DNA from: a virus
Lineage: Duplodnaviria; Heunggongvirae; Uroviricota; Caudoviricetes
IMG/VR virus record: IMGVR_UViG_3300021431_000083
Reading direction: 5' to 3' (one strand)
DNA length: 64,000 nucleotides
This document shows, piece after piece, positions 36,999 to 59,846 of this stretch. Position 1 is the stretch's first letter. Each line of letters begins with the position of its first letter. The notes beneath the pieces are model-generated. The model searched no databases, was not told where the DNA came from, and saw only the letters and a program-made list of their open reading frames with translations. Position numbers and translations under genes: made by a program.

Positions 36999-37102
36999 AG
37001 ACGTTTCTCCTTTGATTTTCTTTTTATCTTCTATTATATATAATTTTTAAAGATAATAGTTTATGCACATTCGTTAAAAAATTTTTTAACGGCATAAAAA
37101 AA

Positions 37103-37126
37103 AGAGCACTATAAAAGTGCTCTTTT
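37103..37126. terminator. rho-independent terminator hairpin (AGAGCACT ... AGTGCTCT) with T-run
   Basis: Immediately downstream of the gene ending at 37135. Confidence 0.55.
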
Positions 37127-37134
37127 AATAAATT

Positions 37135-37507
37135 TTATTCACCGTCTGTTGGAGTTTCAGTATTCTCATTATCTGTTGGAGTTTCAGGGGTCTGTTCCGC
37201 AGTTTGCTTCGCATCACGAATAGTGCGAAGAGAAGTGACGATTGAATTTATATCAGCTACAGTGACTTCAGGACTACTTGCCCATTGATCTACAGTGTTG
37301 AGTAAACGAAGACGATTGATTTCTGCAATTCGCTCTTCTGTTGAAAGCCCCATGAAAAGACCAAGTGCTGTATTAGCACCTTCCATATCTCCAAAAGAAC
37401 CATCATCTACAAGTAGACGAGCGCTATCTAAACGATCTACAAAAGTAGTCCGCATCCACTCTTCGGGGATTGAGTCTAGAAAATTATCAATGTATGTAAG
37501 TGCCATT
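37135..37507 (-). CDS. hypothetical acidic protein (start at the internal Met MALTYIDNF)
   Basis: The track ORF is 37135..37530. AAAGGA RBS ahead of the ATG at 37507. Confidence 0.45.
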
Positions 37508-37583
37508 TTAAATCCTTTCTTTAACAACATGTTGTTTTTTATCTTAAATAGGTGGTATAATTTTTATACCACCTAAATAATCA

Positions 37584-37862
37584 CTATTTTTGCGCGGCTA
37601 ATGCTTCCGCAACTTTTTGAGTAACCAATTCATCAAGAGATATTTTTTCTTCTGTTGGAAGTATCACATCTTCTTCTATTGGCTGTTCATATTTAAATTC
37701 TTTGCCATCTCAGCGATAGTCTCAAATGTCATGCTCAAAATTATGATCTGTTGCTACCACATATCAGTCATGTTCTTCAAATTGTCATTCCATTGGTTGT
37801 CCCATTGTAATGCCTAAAGATGCACGACATTTTCCTGTTTCATCTACTAAAACATAAAGCAT
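37584..37862 (-). CDS. Trp-rich small protein, 92 aa, needs code 4 (five TGA)
   Basis: MLYVLVDETGKCRASLGITMGQPMEW(TGA)QFEEHDW(TGA)YVVATDHNFEHDIW(TGA)DYRW(TGA)DGKEF... AAGGAG RBS. Confidence 0.45.
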
Positions 37863-37874
37863 TTTTTCTCCTTT

Positions 37875-40800
37875 TTAAATATTCGCATATGCTACTTGAG
37901 CAGTAATTGTAATATTGTCTTTTGAAGTAGTTCCCAAAGCTCTTCAATAACTGCGAACAGTAACATTATTAGTACCTGACACTTGATTTAAGTCAAAACC
38001 ACGTAAAACATAATAACCAGATCCAGTTCCAGAAGCAGTAACAGCCAATACGCCAACGCATTTTGTAAATCCGCTAGGAGCAGCGATTGTTGTATCAATA
38101 GCAAAAGTGTTTCCATTTGCTCTTGCAGTTCCATCTTTTACTGATGCTGTTGGTCAGTTTGATTTAAAACTAAAATCAACACCTAAGTTAGTACGTGCGG
38201 CAGCTGCGGTCGTGGCGCCTGTACCGCCACCAGTTATTGCTAATGCTGTTCCTGAGCTAGTAGTTATAGATGTATTACCACTATCAGATGCATTAAGATA
38301 AAGTGCTGCGGTTTTACCTGATACTGGATTTTGTACCGCGAAAGAACGATATACAGTAGTAGGATGCCGCACTATTTCAGAATATCCTATACGAGCATCA
38401 GATTTTTCATAGTGATACATTCCAGCTAAAACAATATTTGAATTTGGAGCTTCGCTTGTAACGGCAGCTGCAAGTGAACGTTGTGTCGTATGACCATTCC
38501 AGTCGATAGTAAGAGCATTTGAACGTAAAACATCAGAGCTAGAATTACCAATAATAACAGCACTTGTGGTATCTATTGCATTAAATCTACCAAGAACGGT
38601 CTGATACTCGCCTTCAGCCACAGTTGAACCATTTTGTGCATGGCTACCATATCCACTAGCAATGGTATTATATCCCTCTGCATGACTATAATAAGCAGCT
38701 CTAGTGCAAAACCCCTCTGCATGGCCACAATATCCATTAGCAATAGTGCTTCATCCTTCAGCATGACTATAATCACTTTGAGCTTTAGTATTATATCCTT
38801 CAGCATGACTATAGTCACTTTGAGCTTTAGTATTATATCCTTCAGCATGGGTATAATCAGCAATAGCTCCAGTATTATTACCTTCAGCATGTGAACCTTT
38901 TCCATTAGCAATAGTGTAATAACCCTCAGCGTGAGAGTAAGAACCATTGGCTGTAGTATAAAAACCCTCAGCATGTGAACATTTTTCACTAGCTGTTACA
39001 TTTATTCCTGCTCCTATTGAATACCCGCCTATCTTAAAACCAGATGCTCTTGTTCCAAATGTAAAACTCGGTGATGGCAAATCTTCATCATGAGATATTG
39101 AGATATACATTTTTCTAAAAGCAACACTAGATGTATTTTTTATTGTAAAACTATTTGTTCCATTGTAGGTAATAGTAAAAGTATAAACATCGGTATTAGT
39201 TGTAATCAGTGATATGTATTTTGTTACAGTTAGTGATGTACCTTTTTGAAAAGTTTCTTCAAATGTAGATAAATCACTTTCATGAACAGATACTACTACT
39301 TTAAAATAAAATGTATCTGCTGATGGAGAATGGTTATAAGTTTTTTGAGAATTAGCTTGAAAATTGAATATTGAAAAAGATGTTTCTATTTTTCTAGTTG
39401 TCTCTGCACCTGAGCTAGTCCCTATTTCAAATGCTACTGAATTATTAGCACCAAATAGTTTAATTGAATCATTGTCAATTTCAGCATTAGCAGAGTCTGA
39501 TTCACCAATTCTCGCTATGGTTCCAAAGCTTGCCACGCTCGTAGAACCATCTGGACCAAATATATCTAAACCGTTGGCAGTAGTTGCAGCACGCTTAGAA
39601 TTTTTTTGGTACATAGTTAAACCATTAGCATCAATTTTAGCGCCTAAACTTGATTCACCACTATTATCATAAAATAAAATTTTATCATCTTTAATTTGCA
39701 TACGACCTTGGTTCGCATCAGTGGTATTACCCATAACCACGCCATCGGTTCCATTTAATTTTAGACGAGCTTTATTGCCACCATCAAAGAATGTCGCGGC
39801 TCCACTACTAATTACTAATCTTTCTTGATTAGTTGTACCACCTTTAATTGTTATACCGCCACTGTTAATAGCGATTCTTTCTGTTTGAGACTGATCATAA
39901 AGACTTATTCCATTACCGTTAGCTCAAAGCATATATTTACCGCTACTATTATATAATAAAATATCAGTTCCAAAATGAGCAGCTTTATTAGCTTTACTAC
40001 TTACGGTAGTATAAACATCTAGACCAGATGAAGTAATTGAAGTATAAGACGTAGCATTTTGTTTAATATTAATACTAGACGAAGTAATTTGAACATGTGG
40101 ATAAACTGATATAGATGGTGTTGATCGTGCTATAACAAGACCATTAGTTGAATCAAAATGCATATAATTGGTGATAATTTGTTCAACTAATTTTGATCCA
40201 TCATATTTAAAAGTAGGATTACTGTCTGATAAATTTATTTGATATACGCCACCATTGGTATGTTTTGCACTGTGTGCTGCACCAATAAACACATAAGTTT
40301 TAGCAGTATCGTTTGGTGTTTGCGTCCATCAATTTGTTGCATCAAGGTAAAATAATCCATCAGTTTTTACAGTGCCAACCAAATATACAAATTTTCTTAA
40401 TTGTAAAGTAGAAGCACTATCTAAAGCAATACCATTAGCTGAATATCTAAAATCAAGAGTATTACGTGATTCTCATATTTCACCACTGTTAGCATCTGCC
40501 GCATAATCAGCACCAGCTGCATGATACATTACTTTACCAAGTTGTAAACCGCCAGTATAACATGTTTTTCCACTCGCTGCTACATTATTTGCTTGATTAA
40601 CTATACTTGTTCAATTGCCCGCTGAATCTTTCATGCATAAAGTATAACGTCTAATACCATTAAGACCAGCAACAACTGATGATGCATATCTATTAGCAAC
40701 TGTATCTCCTGTTGTATAATTGTCACATTTCCAATAAGTACCATCGTAAGTCAATTTAAGAACTGAATATTGTGCATAATGTGTGGTTACATTTGAATTA

Positions 40801-43800
40801 TTCAATCGAACATTTTTTGCACCAGTTGTTTTACCATCTGCTAATGTAAGATTGAGTGTTGCAGCAGAGCCTGTACCTGCGCTTGTCATATAAAAAGCAA
40901 TTTGTTTACCTGTATAAAGAGCAGAATCACGTGTAACACCGGTTCATGCATTCGTTGCAGTAGAACCATGTGTTCCTACAATATATTCAATTGCTCCAGA
41001 AAGTGCGGTATTAGCAGTGTCTTGAGCAGCTTCTACTTGTGATGTAGTTGCTGCAGTATTATTACTACCTCAAGTCATCCCACTAGCACTAACTTCAAAA
41101 TATTTAGTAGTACCAGTATATGCTCTTAAAGTAGTTGGACTAATTTCAAATCTTGATGATTTATCTTGACCAATCCTAGCAAAAGCTGTTGTTCCACTTG
41201 TTCCAACAGTAGAACCAAATAAAGCAACTTCTACAGGCGTACTGCTTGCATCAAAAACATGTAAACCAGAAGCGTCAACTGCAGTACGTTTTTTATTACT
41301 GCTATCATATATTGTAACACCAGTATCATTACGAGCAGTTACACGTCCACCAGATGGGTTACCAATAATAACTCCATTTGTTGCACCAGCTTCAAAACGT
41401 TGATTTCCACTTGCATCGTACATTCTAAGAACTTCTGATGTTAACTCTACTTTTGGATTAGCTCCTGATGCATTACTACCCCCATAGAGGATAATATTGC
41501 TAGAGTATTTAGCTTTAAGATAATTATTCTTATAAATATCTATATCTCCGTCATTGCCATTAATATTTACATATGTGTGATTTAATTTTCCAAATCTTGC
41601 CACATCTCCATTAATAGCACCAATACTAGTATTACTTGAATTATAAAAATCAATTCTACCTGATGTTAATTGAATACGCTGATTTTGAGTTGACGGATTA
41701 GCAGATGCAATTCGTAGACCATCCGTACTATCAAATGACATATAATTTGTTGCTGTAGTAGCTGCATTAGTAACATTAGTTTGAGTTTCTCTACGAGAAA
41801 CTACAAAAGTGGATGAATTTACAGGCTGCGTTGTAGTTGGAGATACTGATTGAGCCGAATCAAAAGTATAGGTTTCTGTTTTAATTGATGGTGGAATTGG
41901 AGTATTTGCTTTATATGAATAAATACCACCACCTCTACAATACATCACTAATTTATCACTATGATTTAGTTCTTCGCTAAATGTGACAGGATATAATCCA
42001 TCTGGCAATTGACCAAAATTATAAGAATCAATAAAACTACTTGAAGATGGTTTTCATCCTCATTGAGATGGATAATATGTTATATCGATGCTACAGGCTC
42101 AATGTTTACTATTATGATTCGATCAAGTAGGTGTTCCACCAGCACCATTAAATGTCATAACAACTTTAGTAGACCCACCTGATTTTGCTGGTGATAATAT
42201 TATTGGATATCAAGTATCTTGACTATAAGTAGAAGATGAAAGATCAACAATATGATCATACATTTCTTTAATATTTTCACTATGGTCTATTTCACTAAAA
42301 TGCTTAGGAGGATCAAAAAGTGTGGCACCAGTGATAGCAGCTTCACTTGATGCTTGCATATAACTAGCTAAAATAATATCTGTATTATCATTTCATGTTC
42401 AATCAGTCGCATTTGCATTACCAGCAGTTTGCGAAGAATTATAAGAGCGTGCTTTTCATTTAGCTGTAGAAGTATCTCAATAAACTCCATAAAAAACATT
42501 GTTAGAAGTACGTCTAACACAATAAGTTAATACATTGTAAGGAAAATATGTGTCAGGATTAATTCAATATCCTTTTGGAATTGTCACTTTTGAGCCATTT
42601 CAAATTACTCAACCATCACTATTCGCTGGTGCATAATTATCATCTAAACCACAGAAAAGGCATTCTCCATTATTTGATCCGACAGTTCCATTTCATGAAG
42701 TACAATTTACTTTCATACAAAGACCACCAGTTTTTGGTATCTCATTTTGTATATTAGTTAATTGTGTAGTAGTTGCAGCAATATTATTACCTCAACTTAA
42801 TCCATTTGCAGAAACTTCAAAATATTTAGTATTAGAACTATTATATGCTTGAAGACTATCACTATTCATCAAAAATCTTGATGAATTATTTTTACCAACT
42901 CTAGCTGTTACTCCAAAATTAGCTACATCACTATTATCTTTATAAATAGTCATTCCATTGCTATTAATAGCAACACGATTATTTGTTGTGGATGAAGGGT
43001 GAATTGTAATACCAGCATTGTCAATATGTGTTATATAATTACTAGCAATTTTACTAGCATCATCAATAGCGGAATCTACGTCTTCTGGTGCGGGAGATCA
43101 GTCTGTAGGTTTATTACCTTTTTCAAGTTTAGGCTGTCTTACATAGAGAATTGCCTCTGTCCCACTAGTCTTTGACCCGTTATTGTCAAAGCGTGCAATC
43201 CATATAGCAGTTTCGTTTGTGCCACTCACCCACGTATCAGGCATAGTTACTGTTCAGGTATAATATTCCCAATCAATTGTAAGGGCACTGAAGTTTTTAC
43301 TTTTTACTGTTTTTACTGCAGCATCATATAAAACCATTTCAACGCTTGAAACTTGACCATTTGTTTTCATTCATGCTGAAAACGTATATGTGGCTCCAAG
43401 TTCCAGAGGAACTGTCGTTTTGCCACTAATATATGATTCGCTAGTCGTTGTCGTTGAACGGGTATAGACGCCATCTGCGAATGTTGAATAAGATCAACCC
43501 CTTCCTGTCCCGGAATATGCAAGCAAATTTTTTCCACCAATTTCACCAGCTAAATCACCGATATTAATTTCACTTACTTTAATTTTATTAGCTGCAATAC
43601 TATTTGTTATAATATTTCCACCGTCAATAACAGTCGTATTTTCATCTAATAACACTTTAGTACATTCTACTGTACCATCTAAACGTTTACGTTGTTCACA
43701 AGTGTAAAGACATGGATATTTAGTATACCCATTAGCACTACTATTAGTACCATTAGCTAAAGGTGGAATTTTAGTAGTTCATGCATTATAAACATTTGCA

Positions 43801-46628
43801 GTTGCTTCATTTACTCATGTTGTAGGTGCCGCAAGACTATTATTCGCTGCGGTAGTACGATAATAGATTCTATGAGTTGCTACTATCTCTGTAGGAGTAA
43901 CCTGTCTAAATTTACCATCAATATATGCATACAAACTTTTTGAACTATTAAAATATAATTTATTTGTAGTAGTTGATGTATAGTCATTCGCGAGAATACC
44001 TATTGGAATATAAAAATTACCATCCTCGCTATTTGGTATTTTACAAGTTAAATAATTCGCTGAAGCACAAGTAAACGTATTTCCATTTACTTTACCGACA
44101 ACATATACTATTTTATTGGCCGCAATTTCTGGAATGTTAGCCACAGCTAATGTTGTTGCAATATTTACAGAAGGATAGTTCTCATATGCGTTAGCATATT
44201 GCGATCCACTAGTTCATGCTCCTCCAGCTCAAAGAATTGGATAGGATAAATCAAATGCTACTGATGCAGCGACTTGCTTATAACCAGCAGAAGTTCCGCA
44301 GACAATAGCTCCAGATGTAACTGCCGCAGCTGCTTTGACATAATTATTATGTAGTGTACGATCATAGTTATTTGTATTATATCAACCAGCAGTACGTCAG
44401 TTTGATCCATCAAATGTCATTTGAATAATAGAGCCTGCGGGATAGTGTGATGTTACACGAGTAGTCATAGAATATACGGGGATATTACCACCAACATTAT
44501 TGCCAGCTGAATCTTTAAGTTGTAATGATGCTCCACTACTATTGCCTGCATATGGTAATTTATAAGCAATTGTCTTACCTGCAACTAATGATGTTTCTTT
44601 AGTAATACCTGTTCAATTATTAGTTGCAGCAGTTTGAGTACCTGCAATATATTCAACACCAGCTGCTAAAGTAGCTGCTTCTGCATCTTCTGGTGCAGGA
44701 GATCAGTCAGTTGCTTTATTACCTTTTTCGAGCTTCATATTACGAATATATAATGTATAATCAGTACCAAGATTATATTTTGGGTATACACCAAAAACAG
44801 AGCCTTCTAAAGAGTTAGTTATAAAAGTAAATGAAATATGGGTTCATTTACCAATTGGGACATTAGTTGGTGTATAAATACGTTCTGAAGCGACATCTTC
44901 ATGTGTTTTATCACTAGCTGTACTTGCATTATTACTAACTCCAAAATGACCAAGAGAAGTAAAATTTAAAGGAACTGAAGTTGTATTGGTTGTAGTAGTA
45001 AGATATACTCAAGCACTATAGGTATAAACAGTATTTGCTTCAAGCATTGGAGCCAAGTGAGTATTATCATATCACAATCGTATTGAAGTATTTGCTCCAG
45101 TTGCTTTATATGCTGAATATCCGCCAACAGAATCTATCACCACTGAAACACGTGAAGCTCCGATGGTTTCTAAATTTTCTTGGCTAATAGAACTTCTTTG
45201 AAGTAAATTTCTTCCACCGATTTGAAGATTATCTAAATTAGTTTGAACTGCTGCAGCCGCACCTTTAGTGTCATAATTATTAGTTAAATAATTCCCAAGA
45301 GTAGTTGTAGTATTATCGCTATTCTTAAAAGTTGCGGTTCCATCAATTTCAATATGTTTAGCCTGAATTTTGACACTATCTGCAGATTGATTAATAAGTG
45401 AAGCAACAGTATTACCATTATAATCTGTTGTAGAAACTTTTAATGCTATGTTATCTGCATTTTGAATAATTGCAGACTCTGCACTAGATACACGTTCTTC
45501 AATATCTTCAGGAGCAGGGGTCCAGTCGGTGGCTATCGTTCCTTGCTCTAACTTGGGCAAGCAAAATTCGAATGTTCCTGAGCCTTGTCCACCTATCGTT
45601 ATATTGATAGTAGAGTAATTCTCGGCCGGTATCTCGGTTGCCAAATCGATTCTAGTCCATTCGGATGATGTGGCTCGTAATACAGGAAGATTTATATCCT
45701 TGTATTTCAATCCATTTGGAAACGTTCGATTATTGGTTAAGGTAAATCTAACAAATATTGAACTACCAGATATATCTCCATTAACCTTAACATATGCGCT
45801 GATTACAAATGTAGTGTCCTTGTTCAACGTATCAGGAATAGTTACATTTGTAACGTAAGCGGAGCCTATGCCGCAAAACACTCGACTAGAGCCTGTGTTG
45901 GTGCCTTTGTATCGAATCGAAGACGATCCGTTAAGACCTTCGGCAAACTCAAAGTACTGTTGATTACCGCTCGTTATGCCGACTAACGATAAATCAAATG
46001 ACTTGGGCCACAGATTCTTCCCGCCGATTTCTAAATTATTAAACTCAGTCTTAGTAGTATAATTTGCAGCAACTGTACTGGTAATACTGTCACTAGCAGT
46101 TTTAATAGCAGCATTTCTATCAGTGACTTCTTTACTAATAAAACCATCTACACTAGCCTTATTATAAACGTCACTACTATTAGCTTTAAGAGCAATATTT
46201 GTAGCATTCTGCTCAATAGCAGTCTTAGCAGAATATACACGCTCCATTAAATCACTATCTTGTATTCTCCAATAGGTACCGTCATATGTAAGTGCTATAG
46301 CTGCACCATCCAACCATTCTCGTGCGGCTTTAGTTAATTCATTACCATTATAATCACGAATAGTTTTAGCACCTGTATTATTAACATTTAATGTTGGTGT
46401 AACCGCAGTATTTTTACTTGTGAATTTTACTGTCACAGTTGCACCCGTATAAAGAGTTCAACCAGAATCAGCTGGAACAATTGTAGCTACTTTTGCGGCT
46501 GTGCTTGCACCCGTGCTGCATGTAGCAAATTGTCCTTTAATCTGTGACAAAGTCGCATAGTTTTGTTTAGCATAACTGTTAAAACCACCAGTTGCTTCAA
46601 AACTAATTGAACCAGTTTGTGTACTCAT
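37875..46628 (-). CDS. giant modular tail-fibre or adhesin-like protein, about 2917 aa, open only under code 4 (dozens of TGA, no TAA/TAG)
   Basis: ATG at 46628 with AAGGAG RBS. All track ORF pieces in this span share one frame and are bounded by TGA. Every inter-piece gap was checked triplet by triplet and contains no TAA/TAG. Modules: a TYDGTYW unit repeated three times, a KLEKGNKxTDWxPAPED motif three times, and a SHAEG repeat block. Confidence 0.55.
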
Positions 46629-46641
46629 TTTATCTCCTTAT

Positions 46642-49600
46642 CTATCATGTGACAGTACAATTATATGTAGCATTTAAATCTGTTACGTCTAATGTCGAAC
46701 CAGTCCCCAAAGAATCTGCACTAGTTCCTTTTGTTCATTTATATCCTGTCGGAGTAGTTATAACTCCATTAACTCTCAATGTCGCAGCTAAAGTTGCAGT
46801 TCCAGTGGCTCAATTTATAGTTGTGGGTGTGACAGTTACAATAGCTTCCGGACCAGTTGCACCAGTCTGACCAGGGTCACCCTTATCACCCTTATCACCT
46901 TTTTCTCCAACATACCTTGACCACGTATATGAATTTGCAGTGGTTGGCGCTGTAGCACTATTACCAACATATACACCAATATATGTGGTAGAGGCCGTCG
47001 GCGTTGCTGTCATGCCTGCGCCAGAAGAATTCGTACCATACCGCACATAAGTATAAGAGCTAGTACCATTAATACCAGTTTTACCACCAACTGTATAAGT
47101 AGTAGCCGTACTATTATCACTATAAGTTGTTATTGTACGTGTCCATGCATATTGTGTAGTAGTAGGTGCTTGCGGCGAGGTCTTCCATTCTCCCGTTGGA
47201 GGTGTTGTTCCACTCGTAGAAAGCTGATAAGCATATTCTGTACTTTTAACCGTAACAGAGCTGCCATTACTACCATTAGCTCCTTGTCGTGATGTTGTAT
47301 AACTTACCGCTTTAGATGAATCTGAAAATGTTGTAGTAACTTTTGTTCATAGATATGAACCTTGAGCTACGCTTGGAACAGTTGATTGTCACCCAGAATT
47401 AGGAATCGTAGTACCATTTGTAGAACTCGTATACTCTGTGACATTAGATGAAATAGTTACACTGTCACCCTTTTCTCCTCTATCACCTTTTTGACCTTGA
47501 ATTGCTAGTGTCCATGAAAATTTCTTCTCAAAGCTTTTACTATCTACTACTATTGGGATAGTAAGAACACCACTTCTAGTAGTTAATGTATTTGCCGCAC
47601 TTACTGTAAAACCAGCTGAAGTACTATTGTTGTTAGTAATAGAAGTAGTTAAACCTGTAACTTCACCACTAATAGTTCCAATAGAAACGGGAACTTGTGT
47701 AGTACCTTTATAAGCTATAATGTTACAAGTTGTACTTGAAGCAAGTGCCGCACTTGTACCAGCTGGGAAATTGTGAGATTCATTCGTTAATGTGACAGTA
47801 TAACCATCACTACCTGCCGCACCTGGAGCACCTGGCGGACCAGCTACACCTTGTCAATTTTCAACAATAGTTCATTCGGTAGCACCAGTTCCTTTATAAT
47901 ATAAATCATACTGACCATCACCATCATCAACAAGATAAGCATCAGCTTCATTTGCCGCGCTTATATTTGGTAGTTCAGATTCTAAATATACACCTGATTT
48001 AATATTTAAAATTTTACCATCTTCGCCCTGATAGCCGTCACTAATAATTGGTACTGTCTGTGTATCAATTAATGTTGTAGTACCTCCCGCAAGATATAAT
48101 TCACATTTTACAAACTTAGTGTTTGCGGGAGCTATATATTGTTTAACACTTTCATCTGAAGAACTTGTATATCGAGAAGTCCAAGTTGTTCCATCTTCTG
48201 AAATTGAAATGACAAATCTTGCAGGGTAATCCGCAAGATTTCCTGTTCCTTGACTTCTCTTGGAAGTAAAAGTTATTTTAGGAGGTATATCTGTTAAATT
48301 AGCTTTTGCTATTGCAGAAGGGTCACACAATAATTCATAAACGTAGGAAGGGTCTCCAGGATCACCCTTATCACCTTTAATTAATGACCAGTTATAATCA
48401 GAAGGATCATCACTGTCCGCAAGATCAACACTATCATATACACCCATATATTTTTTATTGGTACTATTGGATGTATCAAAGCCAGTTGCTCGTACAACTA
48501 AACTACCATTTTCTTGCGTAATGGTAATTGTATCTGCTCAAGCTATATGAATATTTTTACCATTAGCACCTGGAACACCATTAGCGCCATCTTGACCATC
48601 TGCAATTTCTAAATTTGTTTCATTTCCATCACTATCAATTAATGTTACTGTTGTAACACCATTTTGTTTAGAAGAACTTTTAACAAAAACACTTGTACCA
48701 TCTTGTCCATCAGTACCAATATAAGATTTTTGATATGTTACATCAGAACTAAAATCTGAATATTCTGTTGTAGTACGAACTCAAAGTCAACTACCTTTTT
48801 GAAGTGTTAATAAATCTTCTTCTATTGATGACTCATCAGCAGGTTCTTCATCAGTACCAGGTTCTTCTTCCTCACCAGTATCAGGTTCTTCTTCATCTTG
48901 TTCTAATTCATAAATATCATATCACTGGTCTATAGAACTCTTTCAAGCTTCATCTTCAGGAATAACATCCCCAGAATCGCTTATTGCATAAGCAATCTCA
49001 ACAGAAAGAATACCAATACCTGTTAAACCTTGCGGCCCTTGCTCACCTTGCGGACCGATTGGCCCGGGTTGACCTTCCGCACCTTGAATACAAGTATATG
49101 TATATGTTTGTCCATTAGTAGTAGTTCGCATTCAAACATATTTACCAGGTTCTCATTCAGGAGTTTCAGTTGACCATCTTTCTACATCAGAATGATCTGT
49201 GCTTGAACTACTAACGCCATATTGGATAGAAGTAATTGCAGAGCCAAGGTCATTTAAAACTTGTGATAATGTCTTTTTACTTTCTCCAATAGTAACACCT
49301 GTTAGAATATCTACTCCATCGCCGCCAATGGTGATATGACCATTGCCATCAAATACTACATAAGCATTTTCATCACCAATATAAAACGGTGAATTTCTAT
49401 CAAATTGAATGCCACCAGGACCATCTTCTGTTTCATTGTTAACTATTGACTGTTTAATTACACCATTAGGGTCTACAATAAATATACCTGGGGTATAATT
49501 TCCTGTACCAGTAGAAACCAATATCCTTCATCCAGAGATAGTAGATGCTACATAAAGGCCATCATCTGTTTGCGCAACATGAGAAGCAACATAGTTTTGA

Positions 49601-50379
49601 ATTGTCTCATCTAATTCATATCACCCTTCTTCAGAAGGATTTTCACTTCCTCATGGACTAACTTTTGACATTGTTCCGGTAGAAGAATCATAAGTATAAT
49701 AATTTTTATTAGGGTCTACTTCTGTATCTGTTGAAGCAGTTCTATGTTCTGAAAATCAATTTACTGTATCAATAACTGACTCAAGTGTTGAAAGTCCTGC
49801 AAGAGCACCATTAGCATAAGTATTAGCTCTTCTAGCATCCGTTTGTGCGGCGCTGGCGGCTTCACTTGCTAAATCTGCTTTATGGTTTGCTAGTTCAGCT
49901 GCTTCACTAGCATCCGTGGCTTTATTTCAAGCCAGCTCAGAAGCTTGTGTTGCACTATTTGCGGCAGATTCAGCTACAGCTGCACTTGCAACTGCTTCAT
50001 CTGCTTTCTGTCCTGCAACATCTGCTGAAATTGAAGCTGACACAGCTTTATCTCAAGCTGTATTGGCAGCTGCAGAAGCGCTCGCAGCTTCGTCTCACGC
50101 TTTATCTGCGGCTTGTGTAGCTGAAACAGCTTTCTCATCTGCTAATGCCGCAGCTTCTGACGCTGCCATTGCATTTGCCTGTGCCGCAAAAGCTGTTGAA
50201 TAAGCCTGACTAATTGAATTTGATAATGTCCCATCTGGGCCAGTTTCAAGTTGTATATATTCAATATCATTACTGTGGGCAATAACTGTCGCCGCAATAT
50301 TTTGAATATCGTTACGGCTAGCTATATCCGCAATTTCTTTTGTTTCATCGTTAATAGTTAGATAAGATACTGTATCCAT
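46642..50379 (-). CDS. collagen-like-repeat tail-fibre protein, about 1245 aa, needs code 4
   Basis: N-terminal Ala-rich region, then GXY triplet runs (GAEGQPGPIGPQGEQGPQGLTG, GDKGDKGDPGQTGATGPEA). All pieces share a frame. Ends W(TGA)-TAG at 46642. Confidence 0.55.
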
Positions 50380-50467
50380 CTATTCTCCTTTTGTAGCCGT
50401 TTTTATTTCTATTATATTTAATTTCTAATCATTATTTATTATTAGTTTTTGTTATTTAAAAAGAAAA

Positions 50468-50492
50468 AAGGTCTTGTATAAAACAAGACCTT
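50468..50492. terminator. rho-independent terminator hairpin (AGGTCTTGT ... ACAAGACCT) after the tape-measure gene
   Basis: Perfect inverted repeat with a T-run on the minus strand. Confidence 0.6.
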
Positions 50493-50498
50493 TAATAT

Positions 50499-53400
50499 TT
50501 AATATTTATATTTATTAGCATATTGATAAGCATTATCAGCCAGCTCTGTTAATGCACGCTCAATTTCAAGTGCGGTTGTTACACCTGGGAAATTAGCACT
50601 AACTTCAACACGTTGTTCAACATTATTATTAGAAGCATTTGAACTTATACTATTTCCAAAAGAAGGTAGCTTGTTAACATTGGACATAATGTCACGAACT
50701 ACTTCTACTGTAGAAAGCATGTTCTTAGTATCATCAGCATTAAGAACTAATTCTTTTTGATGAAGAATAGCTAATTTTCCTTTCTTTTCATCCATGCCCA
50801 TATCTGTTCATGTTCCAGTATAGCCACCAGTATCTCATTGCCCAACTTTAATTGTTAAAGGCATTCCTGGACGACTATGATTCTTTTTATATTCTTCTGC
50901 GGCTGTATAGCTTGTTGTTCTAAACACCATTCCACCGCCGAATCCATGAACTGAATAGTGCGTAGGACGATTATCATTACTGCTAGAATCATCATTACTA
51001 CTATAAATAGGAGTACTGTTAGTATAAGTAGGCTCACTATAACTGTTATCATAACTACTTCCTCCTCCTCCATCACTATATGAAGTAGTATAAACATCAT
51101 TATGATAAGTAGTATATGTAGTAGTATAATCAACAGAAACATCAATATCTGAATTTTCTGCGATGCGCTCTAATTCATCTGCCGCAAGTGATGCAGAATA
51201 CTCTATATCACCAAGGGCCTCATCCATCGCATTAGCTTTAGGAACAAATTTCTCTGCTTTTGTAATAGCATCACTTATTTTACTATTTCATCCATTCTCT
51301 CCACCAATTGCAGTTGTTGATGCTGATATTACGTTATTTAAATATCCTAAATCTTCTTTAAGACTTACAGCATCATCATCTAGTTCTTTTGTTCCTTCTG
51401 CTGTTGGTGTGAGACTATCACTCACAAAATTATCATAAGTAGTTCCTGTATTAATTAATACTTCATTATTTATACTTTCATATTCTCTTAGATAACCATC
51501 TGATCCTGTGATTTTATCAAAAGTTTCTCTAATTCCTTGATCTATATTATTAGCAGTAGTGATGCTTTCCGTTTCTGTAACTTTAAATCGATCATCAATA
51601 CTAGTTAACGCAGCTGAAATAATTCCTTCAATACTATCATCGCCTTCACTTTGTTGCATAAAAGCGCTTTTTATAGAATTACTTATTCTAGGTAACTTAT
51701 CTTTTTCAAGACTGTTTCCAATATTAGTTCAACTAGTATCAGAATCTTCTTCTGTTGTTTGAAGGAGTTCTTTCATTGTTCCTTTATCTCCGAACAACCC
51801 TTCTGCACCAGAAAGAATCTTCGTGAAAACGCCTAAAGCAGATTTTGCAAAATTCTCTCAACTTTCATCTGTGCCGCCTTCACCAGTTTGATAATCTATT
51901 AAATCTTGTTTCATTGTTCCGAGAGTATTAGAAGATAACGTTCTTATTCCTTCGTATACTTCTTCTAGTTTACCTAAATTTTCTTGTGCAATTAAATTGT
52001 CAGCTTCTATAAAATCATTGTAAAGGTTAACAGATATTCCTTTAATTTCTACAGAAGAATTATTCATATACTCTTTTAAACTTTCAAGAGTATAATTGAT
52101 TCGTTTAGCTTTTTCATCAAAACTTAATGAGGCATCCGTAGCAATTTGAACGACTATTTCTTTTGTCTTTAAAGCTGTTTGAACTGCATTATCATAAGTT
52201 TCTAAGAATATTTGCTTGGATAAATTATATGCTTCTTGTTGAGCATTTAATAATGCTTGCTGAGCTTGATTTACTGCATTTTCATCAGCACCATAAACAA
52301 AATCATAATTACCTGCGGCATTACGCTGTAACCGCATTTGACTTTTGTTGTTTTGAGCTTCTTCTAATGCAATTTGTTTCTGAAGAATTTCTAACTGTTT
52401 CTCTGCATACTGAACATCATATTTACTAATTGCCAAATTTTCTTTAGACGCATCTGTTCTAGTACGCAAATAATCTAATTGATCTTTCATATGTGCGGAA
52501 ATACGTTGCTGTACTGCAAGTCCCGCGTTTTGTGTATCATTTAATAAATTTTGATATTTTAATTGTAACTTTTGAATTTCAAAAGCACGATTATAATCAT
52601 CAAGATATTGTTCAGAATTACGAGTTGCTATCTCTCATTGTTGAGCAATTCATTCAGCATCTTGTCCACCAAAGAAACCATTAACCATCTCATCTACTTG
52701 AGATCTTACTTGTGCTTCAAGTTTTGATGCAATATCTTGAAGCAAACTAGTCTCTGTATCAATTTGTTCTTGTTGAAGTTTAGCGACTTCATTACGAGCA
52801 TCACGTAATTCTTTACGTTGCTCTGTAGACAGTTTTTTATCGCTACTTTCAAGTTTTTCAAGTTCTCTAACAGTAATTTGTTTAGCTTCAAGCGCTTCCC
52901 CAATTGTTGCCATTTTACTCATATTGGTGTTAATTTTTTGATTATAAAGCTTAATTTGAGCACCATAATCATCACCAAATAATAATTTAACTTGATTTAA
53001 TCGAGTATCAAGAATATCTTCAATTCTATCATATGCTTCAAGCCTATTGTCAACAAGTTCGTCCATCTTTGCAGAAGCTTCACTGATAGTATCTAATAAA
53101 GAATCATAATACCCAATTATATCATTAAGAGAATCAACAACTTTGTCTGTAGCTTCACGGAGATTTTCTCTAGCAGCTTGTTGACTAAGTTTTTCTTCAT
53201 CAGCGGTTTTTCCATCTTTTCCGCTCTTATCAAAAACATCTTCGGCATCTTTAATACGTTTATCTAGATTCTTTATTTCAGCATCAATTACAGATATAGA
53301 ATTTTTATTAAGTGTCGAAGAAAGTAAATTAGATAATCCTTCAGAATAGAATCGTCTATCATTATCAAAGTGACTATATCCACTACCGCCTTCTCTTCAA

Positions 53401-56400
53401 TTACGGGCCATTCTGTTAAATTCACGCTGGCTATCCATCGCTTCAACAACTTGATCAATACCCTCTTGGATACTATCAACTATTTCATCTGCGGCATCTT
53501 GAATTTTCTCATTATACTCTTGAATTTGACTTTGACTATCTTCAATAGTTTTAAGAGAAGATTCATAGTCTGATACTGCTTTCATAAAATCATCATGATC
53601 TTTTTGAGCCAACTCAATATTTTTTTTGTATCAAGTAGTATCTTCTACACCATTACGAACTGCTGCATTATATCTTTCTATTTCATCATTTACTTTTTGA
53701 GTTAAAGCAGCTTCAATATTTTTTCCATTTTCAATGTTACCTTTGGAATCAAATTTAACACTACCAAAACCAGCACGACCCGCAAAACCATTAAGGGTTA
53801 AATTACCATTTTCATCATACGTATGTGTTTGTTGATTTTTTACATGCTTCTTTGCTAAACTAACTTCTTTTTCAAGTAATTTGATATATCCTTTATATTC
53901 ACTCTGCATTTTCTTTAAATTAGAAATACGACTTTTACCAAACAGTCTATCTTCTAATTTTGTTAATTTTTCCATCGCTGCAGATGCACGATCTAAATCA
54001 TTGGTTATATCAGTTAAATAATCTCACTCATTTTTTTGTTTATCTTCTGGATCAATTGTTTTTTGCTTAGGAGTACTATTATTTTTTGGAGAAGAAGATT
54101 TTCCACCAGAAGGTTTTGGATTACTGCTATAACCACCAGTATAAGAAGGATTACGTGCAGCTGTATTTGCAGTTTGAACACCTGAACCAGTATAATGTGT
54201 ACCCTGAAGATATGGAATCCTTGTTGTTGTTTCTACTGGTACCATATGTGGAATCATTCTAATTTTTGGAATAGACGGTGCTTGACTTCCATCTGGCATC
54301 GGTCCAACCTGGTCAACCCAATCTACAGCAACCTCATATTCTACTGCATCAACGGTGCCTTTCCCTTCAGCATATTGAATTTTAGCATCCATTCCAATAG
54401 AAGAAAGAATGTTTGAAGCCTGTTCCGCAGATATTTGACTATCTGCAAGCATCATATTTAATTTTTGAATAAAGGGTTTATCATCGAGATCTGTTGTAAT
54501 TGTAATAGTTCCAGCATTAATTTCTGCTTGTAATTGATTTAATTCATTTAACAATTGTGAACGTACAGCATCAACATCTTCCCCCTTTTTTAATTGAATA
54601 GAAAGATTTTGAATAATATCTTGTGCTGCTGCAATACGTAAATCATCAATGGCAGACATATCACCTTCAGCCATACGTTGAGCATATGCTAAAGCATCTC
54701 CACTTTCAATAAACGTATCACTTAACGTACCAGCATCAATATTCAGAACTTCAGATAATCCTTTATCTAAGTCGTCTAAAGCTTCATATCACTCTGTGGT
54801 ACCTTTAAGAGCATCATTAGTAAGAATTTCAGATATGTCACCAATTTTATTGCGTAAAGTCACAACGCCATTACTCATACGAAGAATTGCGGCAGTAGTA
54901 TCTCTTGCGGCATCATCTAAATCTTCAATTTCAAGATTTATTTTTGAGATTTCTTCTGCTTCTTCTTCTGTAACTTTACCGTCTTCCTTTTTAACAGCAA
55001 TTAAATCTTCAAGACGTTCTTTTTCTTTTTGATAATATCCGCCTTCTTCTTCATAAGAGTTACGAGACATACGATTAAAGGCACCTTCAGACATACCACT
55101 GTCATTAAGGAAGTCTTTGAAATCCTCTTCATTAGAAGAAATATCTATGCGATTGGTAAAAGTATTACCATTAATATTAGTAGTTAAGTCTTCTGCTGCA
55201 GATGTAAGTAATTTAACAGATTCCGCAAATCCTTCAATATTAATCGTGCCATTTTCAATAGCTTTAGAAAAATCTTCTACAGAATTTATATTTAGAGATT
55301 TAAGTTGTTCTTGTAACGATATATCACTATTATAAGCATCAAAAGCAGCATTTTCATCGGCAATAGCTTTTTGATAGGCTTCTAAAATATCTGTTTTACC
55401 AGCTAATATTTCTTGAGTATAAGCTTGAATTCAAGCCCTAGCTTCTTCTTCACCTAAAAATGATAAATATTTTTTTATATCTTCATTTGATTGAAGTTCA
55501 TCAATAACTTCTTGATAATTTTTAACATTATTAAATAATCCACTATCTTTAAAAATATTTGCAGTATTTTCTGCAATCCCTTTATAAACTTCTACTTGTT
55601 TTTCTTCATTTTCAGTCAGTGTATTTTGTGTAACATATGCTTGTTTAGTTTTTATTAATTCTTCAAGAGCAGCTTTTTCTTCAATATATCCATCTTTAGT
55701 ATTATCTAAAAGTGCAAGTTGTTCTCTAGCAACGGCGATCTCTTTTTCAGCTGTTTCAATTGCACTTTTTTTAGTTTCTATCCTTTGGTCACCAGAGATA
55801 GAAGATCCTTCTCCAATGATATAGCCATTATCTCCAACAACAGGGCTACTCAAAGTAGAGTTTTCAGCATTCAAATCTCTAGATTGTTGACGTAATAGAG
55901 CTGTATTATATTCTCTTTGATTAAGTGAAGCCTGTTGAATTTTTTCATTTAACTCATCATATCGACCAGCATTGGCTAAAGCTTCTGCGCCTTCAATTTT
56001 TAAAGCTTCTGCTAATTCTAAAGATTTATTTTTTAAATCTTCTGAAGCTGCGCCAGTTCGTTTATAATTATCATAAACCTCGTCATAAGCAGATTTAGTT
56101 TCATTTAATTTTTGAACAATTTGATTAGAAGTATTAATCTGCTCTTCTAACTGTTGTTTCCTTTTTTCTTCTGCTTCTGCATATTGATTAACAGCAATAG
56201 TAGCCGCAGTTAATGCAGCACCTATTCCTAGAATGGCTCAACCGATAGGACCAGCCATTGCTGCAACTCTTGATTGTTCAATGCCCAATCGTCTAAGAGC
56301 TGCTGTCAATGCCTCAGTAGCAGCTGTTCTTAAACCAGTTTTAATAATTTGACTGGTTGTAACTTTTCCAGTAGCTTCTTCAATGGCAAGATTCGCTGTT

Positions 56401-59072
56401 TTAGTAGCAATTCCTTTTGCCATTGTTTCAGAATATCCTGCTTCTATTAATGCAGCAGTCATTTTTTCTTTATTTAATTTACCTTGCTCTATACTTTCAA
56501 CAGCAATTTTTTTAACAGTATCGCTCCGCAAAGATATGTTTAAAGCTTGTTTATCAGCTCATAACTCTTCAACAACTATTGCCGCAGCTTGTTGTACTTT
56601 TCAAGCTTCTCAAGCTTTATTAAGTTCTCTAACAGCATTTACACCTTGCATAATACCAGGTACTAACATTGTAATACCCATTAAGCCATTTAAGGCAATA
56701 GCATCAATTTTTTCTTTTAGAGAAGCACTTTCATCCCCAAGTGTTTTAAATGTTTCACCTATCATTGAAACACCAAATGCAATTGATGTTAAACTAGATA
56801 AACCTCTAATGATATTATTAATATTAGCTTCAAGATTAACGGTACTAACGGTTGCTTCCACCATCTTTTCACCAATTTTTAAATTATTAGAAGCAACCCC
56901 AAGTTTTTCAATTAAAGATTCTAATTCAGCAATATTAATTCCAAGACCAGAAGCTTCTCGCCGCATTTCTTGTAAACGAGTAATCATTTTTTCATCTACA
57001 CCAGCGCCAGTTGCAATTTTATTTGCATAATTAGCCACTTCTTTTGAAATTTCTGTGTATATCTTTAATTTTTTACTAAGCTCATTTTTAACTTTTTCTT
57101 CTAATTGGAGGGATTTTTCAATTTCTTCAGTAGAAGCTTTGCCTGCTTTAGCTTTCTCTTCTATTAATTTTATTTCTTCAGCATATTCAGTAACTTGCTG
57201 TTGAATTGCAAATTTTTCTTCAACGGCTTTTGCTCCAATTTGTTTAAAGAAAAGTTCTTGTTCTTTTAAAATACCTGTTTTTTGTTCTTCAAGTTCAACA
57301 ATTTGTTGAGACAAATCTCTTATTTTTTCTTGAGTCTTAACAGATAATTGGTCGTAATTATCTGCAACACTAGCAACAAGTTTACCAGCTACGGATTTTT
57401 GTCCTTGAGCTTGACCATAAGTTTGATCATAATTACTTAAACCAACAAGACTAGCAGTAGTTTGTAACTGATTTGCATTTCTACTATTAGCTACAATAGT
57501 TCCAATAGAAGTGGCCATATTTGTAACAGTGCCAGCAATTTGTGTACTAAAAGTACGAAGCATTAATGCACTTATTGCAGGTAAAACACCATTTAGTCCA
57601 CCCATTGCTTCAACTAAATCATTTAAACCATTAACTAAATGAGTAACATCTTCAATAACAGGTTCAACAGCATCTTGATTAAATAATGTAGACATTACTT
57701 GTTCGCCAGCAGCTTGTAAAGTATTAAGCCTACCTTCAATACTCTCCATATATATATCATTCATCTGATTCATCATACCTTCAGAACCAGCTCCGGTAGC
57801 ATTTAAAGCTTTTTGATAATATTCTGGATTATTCATTAATGCGGCGAAACGGTTATATTGGAATTTACCAGCAACTTTTTCACCAACCGCAATTTTCATA
57901 GTATCAGATAAACTAGACCAAACTTCTTGAGTTTCTTGAAGAATTTGGTCCATTCCTTTAAACTGACCTGTAGCATCAAGTACATCTACACCAATTGACT
58001 TTAAAGCATTAGCGTATTGACCATAATCAACGCCATCTTCAGCTGAACCACCAGCTTTAATATCAGCAAAACGTTGATAAATGGTTTTTAGACCATTACC
58101 GATTTCTTCAGCACTTTGACGTGTAACAGATTCAATCGTAGCAATTGAAGCTAAAAATGAATCTTGACTAGCACCGACCGCTTGCGCAACAGATGCGGCA
58201 CGCTGTGATGCGGTCATCAATTCATTAACATTAGATGCTGTATTATTAGCAACATTTGCAACTTTATCCATTGCTGCAGCCGTTTGTTCAAAATCAAGTT
58301 GAAAAGCATTACGGAAAGCAGTAATTTGATCTGAAGTAGTTGCAGTATCTTGTTCTGATACATTCGCTAATTTAATTGATAAATCTGCATATTGCTTAGA
58401 CTCTCTCTCAGAGAAACCTTCTTGAACGAATACTTTAACAGCATTTGTATAGTCAGTAGTGGTTGAACCTAAAGCTTGTGCTGCACTATTCGCATATTGA
58501 GCTAGTTCCCGCATGTCCTCTTTAGATGAGTTAGTAACCATTTGAATCTGAGTTAATGATTCATCTAAATCTTTCATATATGAAACGGCACCTTGAACAC
58601 TACTCATCATCTCTTGGAAAATACTTGCAGTAATACCCCAACGAACAGTATTTCCAAAAGTATTAGCTATTTTAGATAATGTAGTATTTACATTTAAAGC
58701 ACCCTTATTCATTGATAGAAGAGCATTTGACAAATTTGAAATTGCCATAGTACCACGAGTACCCATTTGCTCTCAATCTTTAACTATCATTTGTAAAGAT
58801 GTATGTTCTTTTTGTAATGATGCGTTTAACTTACTAAGATCAATTGTACCAATTTTAGGATTGAATGCTGCAGCAATAGCAGTTTGTAATTGATTAACTT
58901 TTTGAATAGATTTTTCTATTTTAGCATCATCAAAACCTAGTTGACTAAATCCGCTCTTATCAAACTTTAATGACTGTTTTAATTTAGTTAATTCATTTTG
59001 TAATTTAATAATGCCTGACGTATCAACATCTGTTACAATATTATACTCTACAACATTACTATATTTTGCCAT
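50499..59072 (-). CDS. tail tape measure protein (TP901-family-like core), about 2857 aa under code 4
   Basis: The 56610..58766 segment has the typical tape-measure composition. All 13 track pieces share one frame and every boundary checked is TGA. Strong AAGGAGG RBS at the 59072 start. TAA stop at 50499. Confidence 0.55.
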
Positions 59073-59258
59073 AGACTAAACCACCTCCTTATATACTCGA
59101 TATTGACGTTCTTTATGATTATCTTCTATCCTTTTCAAGAACATCCACTCCTTTATCTCTTATACGTATAACAAATAAAATAGGAATTCCAGGTGTAAAT
59201 TACACCTATAATATTTAAAAATTATCATATGTATATTACTGTTTTTTGAAATAAAAAA

Positions 59259-59279
59259 AAGGAGTCTATAAAGACTCCT
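59259..59279. terminator. terminator-like hairpin (GGAGTCT ... AGACTCC) with an A/T run
   Basis: Directly after the 60-aa gene ending at 59278. Confidence 0.45.
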
Positions 59280-59460
59280 AATTCTTTGGCTTTACATTTG
59301 ATATGTCAACATTTAATTCGTTTGCAAGATATTCAATCTGTGCTTTTAATAAATCTATATCTTTACGACATTTTTCATCAACGATTCTTCTAGTATCTCC
59401 ATTTAGAGTAAGATATGATACTGTTTCCATTTCCATTTTAAGCTCCTTTTTCTCCATCAA
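59278..59460 (-). CDS. small protein whose N-terminus (METVSYLTLNGDT) resembles the N-terminus of the collagen-like fibre (MDTVSYLTINDET)
   Basis: Intact ORF, TAG stop. Confidence 0.45.
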   Translation of the reverse strand: MMEKKELKMEMETVSYLTLNGDTRRIVDEKCRKDIDLLKAQIEYLANELNVDISNVKPKN

Positions 59461-59727
59461 TTAAACTATCTATTCTAGTATTGGCACGTTTAGCTTCAGC
59501 TTCTGCGGAAACAGCTATTGTTCGCACATCCTGTAAATCACGACTAAAAGATCTTATATCAATTTTAACTTCCTTAATGTCATTAGACATAAAATCAAGT
59601 TTTGTTTTTATCTCTGACTCAGATGCTTTTTGCTGACTTGCATCTGTTCTAGTATTTCTTAATCACCCCGCGGCACCAACTAAACAACCAATAATAGCTA
59701 TCATTATAGAAATTGTATTTATATCCA
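59438..59727 (-). pseudogene. paralog of 59852..60148 (N-terminal TM plus coiled coil), with an apparent 1-nt frameshift after codon 9
   Basis: ATG GAT ATA AAT ACA ATT TCT ATA ATG TAG. The paralog-like continuation VAIIGCLVGAAGW(TGA)LRN... lies in the -1 frame and aligns without gaps to MDMATVSILIVIVGCVIGLAEW. Confidence 0.4.
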
Positions 59728-59819
59728 TACCTCTCCTTTTTAAAGCTATTATTTAACCATCTATATTATTTGATTTTCAAAAACTATAAATTATTATAAT
59801 TTGTTATTTTAAAACAAAA

Positions 59820-59846
59820 TAGGGCAAGTATTTTTATACTTGCCCA
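59820..59846. terminator. rho-independent terminator hairpin (GGGCAAGTA ... TACTTGCCC)
   Basis: After the gene ending at 59852. Confidence 0.5.

Follow-up and report, generated by a model that had tools for sequence, protein, structure and literature searches.

Three giant tail genes, read through TGA as tryptophan, in the sequence of a large uncultured phage

Among cultured phages, the tape measure proteins closest to the one considered here belong to phages of Bacillus, Enterococcus and Lactococcus; annotated lengths of 2673 and 3031 amino acids (aa) are known from Enterococcus phage VRE9_4 and Bacillus phage Thrax2, respectively. The present analysis concerns three adjacent giant genes, predicted to encode a tape measure protein (2857 aa) and two tail fibres (1245 and 2917 aa), in a 64,000-nucleotide stretch of DNA, hereafter the window, of a tailed phage (Caudoviricetes; IMG/VR record IMGVR_UViG_3300021431_000083) with SPbeta-like relatives sampled from the gut or from bioreactors. 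The Bacillus phages Tsamsa and Thrax2 (vB_BanS-) are large Firmicutes siphoviruses whose tape measure proteins reach a similar length of ~3000 aa (3123 and 3031 aa, respectively), and the tail of Tsamsa has been measured at 440 nm. Thrax2 also carries a gene for a 1672-aa tail fibre near its tape measure gene, and its tape measure protein aligns with the window's both in the PhageMin_Tail region and at the C-terminus. The two phages differ from the window, however, in that the shared domain is about 26% identical, the code is standard, no fibre of 2900 aa is annotated, and the tape measure gene is followed, in canonical order, by the genes for the distal tail protein and the tail endopeptidase.

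The Enterococcus phages VRE9_4, EF1 and H1 have genomes of ~134-142 kb, similar to that of the window's phage (~141 kb), and VRE9_4 encodes, downstream of its tail genes, a 2572-aa protein of PHROG 33923, a family that also matches the 1245-aa fibre. Its tape measure protein is, however, only ~27% identical, the code of these phages is standard and three 'tail protein' genes stand between the tape measure gene and the giant one. As for the SPbeta-like phages, uncultured human-gut relatives of ~145 kb are known, such as L009, in which YonB, YomW, YomV and YomU genes precede a single gene for a 2798-aa tape measure protein, 28% identical to the window's over 57% of the latter. L009 also possesses homologues of two neighbouring proteins of the window's lineage (608 and 1130 aa), but it uses the standard code and has these two genes after its tape measure gene, whereas they come before it in the window's lineage.

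Recoding restricted to late genes is known from gut phages of standard-code Firmicutes: in Borges et al. (bioRxiv 10.1101/2021.08.26.457843), several clades (Agate, Jade and others) resemble the window in reading TGA as tryptophan (Trp) in structural and lysis genes, the replication genes being standard, and in having late genes in more than one module and a low GC content; the host would likewise be a standard-code Firmicute. Finally, BppA of the lactococcal phage Tuc2009 and the carbohydrate-binding modules (CBM) 4, 16 and 22 are tentative fold matches of one fibre module, as modelled on a relative, and the heads of trimeric autotransporter adhesins (CbpF, YadA type) may resemble another; these are single domains of small proteins, whereas the window strings such modules together in one chain of 2917 aa. 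Each element is precedented, that is, late TGA-to-Trp recoding, tape measure proteins of ~3000 aa, giant modular fibres, and CBM or adhesin-head modules in receptor-binding proteins. At the nucleotide level, a megablast of the 21-kb region against GenBank phages gave no match.

The window is AT-rich (34.5% GC), contains no terminase gene, and has nearly all of its genes on the minus strand. Once TGA is counted as a sense codon, four giant open reading frames (ORFs) appear on this strand: 63551..60159 (1130 aa), 59072..50499 (tape measure, 2857 aa), 50379..46642 (fibre 1, 1245 aa) and 46628..37875 (fibre 2, 2917 aa). They contain 16, 17, 21 and 39 in-frame TGA codons vs. 1, 3, 7 and 11 TGG codons, respectively, and no TAA or TAG at all, while with the standard code no ORF of the window exceeds 720 aa. 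As TAA and TAG make up ~3-6% of the codons in the other frames of the minus strand, the chance of some 2900 stop-free codons, calculated from this stop density, is about 0.94^2900 = 1e-78, which rules out a fortuitous open frame of that length. The positions and sizes which an initial annotation, made from the letters alone, had given for the three ORFs were thereby recovered by TGA-sense ORF calling (their strand, minus, had not been stated), and the three tail genes are confirmed, as predicted genes, with TGA read as Trp. More generally, the code-4 gene calling, domain annotation and structure prediction which that annotation had called for were all run, and returned the giant ORFs, a tape measure domain, a helical model and CBM-type fold matches.

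The three genes are separately organised. The tape measure gene is preceded by the ribosome-binding site (RBS) AAGGAGG and ends in TAA, directly past which lies a strong intrinsic-terminator-like hairpin with a T run (50467..50493, minus strand); fibre gene 1 begins beyond it, ~120 nucleotides (nt) past the tape measure gene. Fibre gene 2 starts 13 nt past the stop of fibre gene 1, in a different frame and with its own RBS (AAGGAGATAAAATG). A read-through fusion of the two fibre genes was considered and rejected on account of the differing frames, the 13-nt gap and this second RBS. Fibre gene 1 ends in TGA TAG (46642..46647, minus strand), i.e. with a stop one codon earlier before a switch of code and one additional Trp after it. 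Antisense ORFs of 208-313 aa are also found on the plus strand inside the giant genes, whose own minus-strand frames are well supported.

That TGA is Trp in these genes has four independent lines of support, all read from sequence. Within fibre 2, the invariant Trp of a repeated KLE.G....DW.PAPED motif is encoded by TGG in the first copy and by TGA in the second and third, and that of a second repeated motif, T[YF]DG..W, by TGG, TGA and TGG in successive copies. When the 2917-aa protein, with X at its TGA positions, was aligned with its 120 best database homologues, Trp was the commonest residue opposite these positions (895 of 3730), glycine (Gly) occurring 160 times. A recoded relative, L002 (70-80% nucleotide identity), has the same three genes, of 2857, 810 and 2974 aa, with 20, 14 and 33 TGA codons and no TAA or TAG; its giant proteins are 45-68% identical to the window's, all three frames are open and the TGA sites differ, 26 TGA positions being common to both phages and 14 sites being TGA in one and TGG in the other. 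As for standard-code relatives, L001 encodes, each in a single gene, a tape measure protein of 4107 aa and a fibre of 3360 aa, the latter with 62 TGG and 0 TGA codons, and the 2798-aa tape measure protein of L009 is likewise the product of one gene. The recoding call, on which the initial annotation had made all its giant sizes depend, was therefore correct, given the alternation of TGG and TGA in the repeats, the Trp residues of the homologues and the relatives.

The use of TGA is also partitioned along the genome. The late genes (~34300..63551 and 7106..8784) contain 114 TGA vs. 29 TGG codons, so that TGA encodes 80% of their Trp, while the genes between the late modules (nucleotide metabolism, RNA repair and others) contain 3 TGA vs. 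84 TGG, and 24 of the 25 ORFs of this early region stop at TAA or TAG. With TGA counted, Trp codons represent 143 of 9926 late codons (1.4%) and 87 of 4768 early ones (1.8%); without it, the late percentage drops to 0.3%. Two marks of late-gene-restricted recoding, i.e. Trp opposite in-frame TGA and a concentration of TGA in late genes, are thus present.

The 2857-aa product (50499..59072, minus strand) is a tape measure protein, an identification on which the initial annotation was right. Its only Pfam domain, PF10145 (PhageMin_Tail), lies at aa 196-402 and scores 100.4 bits against a cut-off of 33.2 (E 1.6e-28), and the PHROG tape measure families 4211, 34405 and 14917, with profiles of 2249-2675 positions, match at E-values of 1.6e-65 to 2e-40. 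The N-terminal domain and the last ~110 residues are collinear with both ends of the 2673-aa tape measure protein of VRE9_4, and both ends also align with the tape measure proteins of Thrax2 and of a human-gut relative. Because both ends are collinear with known tape measures, the ORF would correspond to one continuous protein and not to a chance fusion. Its composition is that of a helical chain, most 100-aa segments containing 40-60% helix formers and 2-10% proline plus glycine, with the exception of a linker at ~aa 1600-1700 and of the last ~350 residues. An AlphaFold2 (AF2) model of aa 946-1213, of moderate confidence (predicted local distance difference test, pLDDT, 64.6), is ~85% helix, with helices of up to 65 residues.

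The length of this protein is conserved among its relatives: the 120 best of 894 homologues, at 26-100% identity, range from 2698 to 3071 aa (median 2788, standard deviation 63), a suggestive figure and not one from a fair sample, since the ranking favours long, full-length matches. Many of these homologues lie on contigs of ~120-154 kb. The tape measure protein of L002 is exactly 2857 aa long at only 45% identity. An identical protein (P0121, 100%) is present in public data on at least 10 contigs of up to 141,063 bp, and one public contig is 100% identical to positions 40499..64000 of the window; both the 2857-aa and the 1245-aa sequences are already in public collections, unnamed. Tail length scales with tape measure length at about 0.14-0.15 nm per residue, and a rule derived from phage lambda gives 0.15 nm. 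By this rule the tail would measure ~430 nm, and by the ratio of Tsamsa (440 nm for 3123 aa) ~400 nm, both of which are plausible. The rarity attributed beforehand to such giant sizes was, by contrast, overstated, in view of the homologues of the tape measure (2698-3071 aa) and of the fibres (to 4455 aa) and of the cultured precedents.

Fibre 2 (37875..46628, minus strand) is internally modular, as mapped by a tiled self-comparison; BLAST of the whole protein against itself gave no off-diagonal matches. A first module, A, of ~110-125 aa, occurs at 46266..46550 (aa ~27-121), 44304..44681 (aa ~650-775) and 40656..41030 (aa ~1867-1991), with self-matches between aa 10-120 and 1844-1966 (E 6e-12) and between aa 661-773 and 1883-1991 (E 4e-18). 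The first copy is a small beta domain, and the T[YF]DG..W motif (aa 114, 738 and 1960) which ends each copy reads TYDGTYW in the first and third and TFDGSNW in the middle one. The three TYDGTYW-type modules announced by the initial annotation are therefore there, but they are longer than its 70 aa and the middle one departs from the motif; nor does its term 'N-terminal-type' hold, as the module is a general cassette part, internal in many homologues as well.

The second module, B, of ~180 aa, is CBM-like and ends in the KLE.G....DW.PAPED motif (aa 359, 632 and 1167). Its three copies lie at 45504..46046 (aa ~195-375, ending in KLEQGTIATDWTPAPED), 44685..45221 (aa ~470-648, ending in KLEKGNKATDWSPAPED) and 43080..43541 (aa ~1030-1183, ending in KLEKGNKPTDWSPAPED), all on the minus strand; three copies of KLEKGNKxTDWxPAPED had been predicted, and three were found, the first of which deviates from that formula. 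CBM_4_9 matches them with E-values of 0.093 (weak), 2.2e-4 and 2.1e-5, respectively, the best score, that of copy 3, being 25.3 bits vs. a Pfam gathering score of 25.9, and Laminin_G_3 matches copy 2 with E 3e-5 (24.7 bits vs. a cut-off of 27.6). The N-terminus of the L002 fibre (P0001), 54% identical to the first 400 aa of fibre 2, was modelled as the equivalent part. Using Foldseek, the AF2 model of its aa 1-342 (pLDDT 61) matched Tuc2009 BppA (E 1.9e-5) as well as CBM4-2, CBM16 and CBM22 (E 1e-3 to 1e-2; target-normalised TM-scores 0.3-0.48), and its residues 61-120, in the region of the first copy of module A, reach block-mean pLDDT values of ~79-88. No papers on the WTPAPED / WSPAPED motif were found in the literature.

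In addition to modules A and B, the tiled self-comparison reveals repeated coiled-coil linkers and repeated beta-rich segments (aa 1199-1295, 1763-1870 and 2332-2390, and also aa 1627-1849 matching 2153-2405). Near the C-terminus, a SHAEG block (38631..38978, minus strand; aa 2551-2666) resembling trimeric autotransporter adhesin heads and matching PHROG 25468, contains eight HAEG and one HAQN copies (aa 2552-2666) with a period of 14 residues and one spacing of 13. In a PDB sequence search with the C-terminal 418 aa, this block matched the head of Fusobacterium nucleatum CbpF (E 4.3e-4 over 101 residues); Pfam YadA_head matches it weakly (E 0.024, 15.4 bits vs. a cut-off of 25), and PDB sequence searches with the whole 2917-aa and the whole 1245-aa proteins gave no matches. 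The repeats are shared, as had been claimed, with a separate fibre or adhesin gene (7609..8784, minus strand; 391 aa, 14 SHAEG repeats, 5 TGA and 0 TGG), at 41-51% identity (E 1e-31), the period being 14 and not the 13 first given. The C-terminal domain of fibre 2, of ~250 aa, had no match.

Across databases, fibre 2 has 695 homologues, the best 120 of which are 1615-4455 aa long (standard deviation 732). Comparison with L002 shows conservation of its first ~140 residues (80% nucleotide identity) but an identity below 40% for the rest and of 37% for the protein overall; a conserved anchor with a variable distal part is the usual pattern of a fibre. In the standard-code L001, modules of both window fibres are found inside the single 3360-aa gene.

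Fibre 1 (46642..50379, minus strand) begins with an Ala-rich, probably coiled-coil part, followed by repeated beta modules of ~60-120 aa, and contains ten G-X-Y runs of 3-8 triplets each. The multiple GXY runs on which it had been called collagen-like are real but short, and Pfam Collagen (PF01391) stays below its threshold (19.9 bits vs. 27.2). Homology to annotated tail fibre and host-specificity proteins was found, with the tail fibre or host-specificity families PHROG 6468, 19556, 3904 and 4242 and the host range and adsorption family PHROG 10693 matching at E-values of 2e-29 to 1e-9. Compared with its 810-aa counterpart in L002, it has additional modules in the C-terminal third. Both giant fibre calls would thus be reasonable, on the strength of remote matches to PHROG families, CBM-like modules and adhesin-head-type repeats; the initial annotation's fibre and collagen-like fibre are kept on the same footing.

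The N-terminus of fibre 1 has a stand-alone look-alike just upstream of the tape measure gene. This conserved ORF is best read as 52 aa (59278..59436, minus strand), the length found in public gene calls, and not as the 60-aa gene first described, but the duplication itself is real: the ORF is 41% identical to the N-terminus of fibre 1 over 39 aa. The likeness is conserved, since in the relative L008 a 54-aa ORF in the same place (9619..9783) shares 51% identity with the N-terminus of L008's own fibre. A terminator-like hairpin with a T run (59260..59279, minus strand) stands past the 52-aa ORF and upstream of the tape measure gene.

Taken as a whole, the locus is very probably that of a recoded large siphovirus with a molecular ruler and two modular fibres, in which TGA is Trp in late genes only. 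The phage, of ~141 kb, would belong to a Firmicutes-type (SPbeta-like) group of large tailed siphoviruses. The tape measure protein would be a mostly alpha-helical ruler setting the tail at ~400-430 nm, and the 1245- and 2917-aa proteins two consecutive, separately initiated and probably trimeric tail fibres or adhesins. Their cassettes would combine a small beta domain, a coiled coil, a CBM-type sugar-binding module (in three copies), short collagen-like linkers and beta-rich repeats, with the adhesin-head-type block of 14-residue repeats near a C-terminus. Such fibres would bind host surface glycans at several sites and diversify by gain, loss and exchange of cassettes, with N-termini kept for attachment; in short, we infer long, probably trimeric and multivalent glycan-binding fibres evolving by cassette shuffling. 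As the first TGA of each giant gene falls within ~100 codons, and early genes are almost free of TGA, full-length products would be made only once the cell decodes TGA as Trp, i.e. late in infection. Beyond the gene models themselves, what we infer is the length of the tail, the trimeric state of the fibres and their binding of glycans, the control of timing, a host with the standard code and an agent that decodes TGA.

Several observations weigh against this account. Mean pLDDT reaches only 61-65 in the AF2 models, one of which was built on the sequence of a relative; the Pfam CBM, Collagen and YadA_head matches all lie below curated cut-offs; and the length conservation of the tape measure proteins carries the ranking bias given above. 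The gene models being drawn from sequence, the giant products may be cleaved or have internal starts. The context of the tape measure gene is not canonical, as no chaperone pair was found upstream of it: it is preceded by the genes for the 1130-aa protein, two ~97-aa proteins and the 52-aa ORF, and directly followed by the two fibre genes. In L009 the genes of the 608- and 1130-aa homologues come after the tape measure gene, in the window's lineage before it, from which we conclude that the tail module has been rearranged in the latter. Lastly, no suppressor tRNA with a UCA anticodon was found among the 14-15 tRNAs of the window, nor in its 15-kb flanks (~79 of ~141 kb in all). None was found in six related or flanking loci either, and Borges et al. 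(bioRxiv 10.1101/2021.08.26.457843) report a suppressor tRNA for only 35% of code-4 genomes.

These last points could be taken together in another way, namely that a reorganised tail module follows an assembly logic of its own and that the decoding of TGA requires no conventional UCA suppressor tRNA. The tape measure and fibre genes would then form a unit with termination of its own, located after the genes of the tail tip and not before them, the ~52-aa protein copying the fibre attachment motif might be a placeholder or a regulator of fibre docking, and TGA may be decoded by the phage's own tRNA-Trp(CCA), the sole Trp tRNA found in the window and flanks, or by an unrecognised RNA. We give the two propositions jointly a small but real chance.

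The 2917-aa ORF might instead be a recent in-frame fusion of fibre genes whose functional products are shorter, through internal starts or proteolysis: its N-terminal module recurs at aa ~650 and ~1867, its CBM modules recur three times, the tape measure protein of Tsamsa appears as two bands (so that processing of large tail proteins can occur), and some homologues carry PF13884, which we take to be an auto-cleaving chaperone domain. The A-coil-B cassette, however, is found in 4664 cluster representatives, with up to 21 matched stretches per protein and in proteins of up to 5508 aa; as it recurs internally in hundreds of homologues of 1600-5500 aa, standard-code ones included, the repetition of modules is a trait of the family and not a recent accident. 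Since, moreover, a Pfam scan found no PF13884 match in the 2917-aa protein, we consider a recent fusion unlikely.

Still less probable, and in our view very unlikely, is a host with an alternative code of its own (that of Mollicutes, code 4, or that of Absconditabacteria and Gracilibacteria, code 25 with TGA = Gly), without any phage-driven late switch. Some code-25 phages of code-25 hosts are mentioned in Borges et al. (bioRxiv 10.1101/2021.08.26.457843), and no suppressor tRNA, release factor (RF1) or tryptophanyl-tRNA synthetase of phage origin was seen in the ~79 kb of window and flanks. A host-wide code would, however, not yield the split between 84 TGG/3 TGA in early genes and 80% TGA in late ones, and this partition argues against a host reading TGA as sense throughout. 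Furthermore, TGA aligns with Trp and not with Gly (895 vs. 160), the phage carries a tRNA-Trp(CCA), its relatives are SPbeta-like phages from gut or bioreactor samples, and the nearest cultured tape measures come from phages of Bacillus, Enterococcus and Lactococcus. TGA as Gly (code 25) and an alternative-code host were both rejected on the residue counts and the early/late codon split.

The view that TGA is a genuine stop, with the giant ORFs as artefacts of short genes or of a decaying, pseudogenised structural module, is effectively refuted and has next to no probability: code 11 does split the region into ORFs none of which is longer than 720 aa, the window and its 15-kb flanks revealed no TGA suppressor tRNA, and some public calls do split the genes (P0242 is a fragment of 718 aa, and the 391-aa gene is fragmented in L011), but TAA and TAG are absent from ~7000 codons where chance would place one per 15-30, L002 keeps its three frames open at 45-68% amino-acid identity with differing TGA sites, TGA stands opposite Trp, standard-code relatives have the same giant genes, and both ends of the 2857-aa ORF match those of a cultured phage's tape measure protein.

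Around the three genes, the fourth giant recoded late gene (60159..63551, minus strand; 1130 aa) probably encodes a tail-tip or baseplate protein; the rearrangement of the tail module was compared across this gene, L006 3675..8914 and L009 24357..28397. The two paralogous ~97-aa proteins (59438..60148, minus strand) each have a hydrophobic segment at the N-terminus and a coiled coil, with LPP and weak Rz-like spanin matches, and occupy the expected place of the tail chaperone genes; the first of their genes is followed by a terminator-like hairpin (59845..59822) and the second directly by the 52-aa ORF. Past the window's high end there are more recoded late genes, one of which encodes 2622 aa (L006 1..2441, a public call) and lies upstream of the 401-, 608- and 1130-aa genes, with 13 TGA and 1 TGG in its last 812 codons and no family match. 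PHROG scans named no function for the small neighbouring genes or for those upstream of the window, and an IMG/VR search for related loci with the tape measure as query gave five pattern matches, none of which was confirmed.

A second recoded late module (7106..8784, minus strand) comprises the 391-aa SHAEG protein (5 TGA) and a 167-aa protein (3 TGA), neither of which uses TGG; both genes are fragmented in the public gene call L011 and whole in L010. It adjoins the genes for a glycosyltransferase (PF00535) and an LRR_5 protein (8785..11126, minus strand), both of which use TGG.

As for RNA elements, an array of 13 tRNA genes (20951..24329, minus strand) includes tRNA-Trp(CCA) and no UCA suppressor. 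One of its members (23505..23575) was missed by ARAGORN and has the anticodon GAT (Ile), read from the sequence, and a GIY-YIG / NUMOD1 homing-endonuclease-like gene (22757..23365, minus strand) lies within the array. A tRNA-Ser stands outside it (16704..16793), as does a tRNA-like element (17399..17470, minus strand; Rfam tRNA 31.2 bits, 'tRNA-???' in ARAGORN), which was rejected as a suppressor because its anticodon arm, as read from its letters, has a 5-bp stem and a 4-nt GCAA loop with no usable anticodon. Between the tRNA array and a set of RNA-repair-type genes lies a full-length ROOL RNA (24991..25566, minus strand), which scores 334 bits against Rfam RF03087 and covers positions 1-574 of the 574 in the model. 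The repair-type set (25975..31740, minus strand), which adjoins the ROOL RNA and the tRNAs, contains two RNA ligases (29421..30344 and 27100..28362), an AAA_33 kinase-like protein (26548..27039) and two metallophosphoesterases (25975..26544 and 31015..31740), all without in-frame TGA. A SPFH / Band 7 membrane protein (14490..15437) and a dCMP/cytidine deaminase (33152..33583) are also encoded by TGA-free genes, both on the minus strand.

The reading of the locus as a recoded large siphovirus opens no new question, late-gene recoding, giant tape measures and giant modular fibres all having precedents; it describes correctly a system that is of interest without being novel, and is a good example from an uncultured phage. 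Leads are provided by the missing decoding agent, by the conserved 52-aa protein with its copy of the start of the fibre, and by the rearrangement of the tail module. The locus illustrates how annotation under the standard code breaks up the very genes of recoded phages that are largest and of most relevance to the host, 7000 codons being reduced here to fragments of at most 720 aa, and how internal repeats alone, through their alternation of TGG and TGA, can settle the meaning of a recoded codon. Within this widespread clade of large Firmicutes-type phages (~120-154 kb), tape measure proteins of ~2700-3070 aa, with implied tails of ~400 nm, contrast with fibres of ~1600 to more than 4400 aa, a size range which we attribute to cassette shuffling, and this contrast would be useful for host-range prediction and phage engineering.

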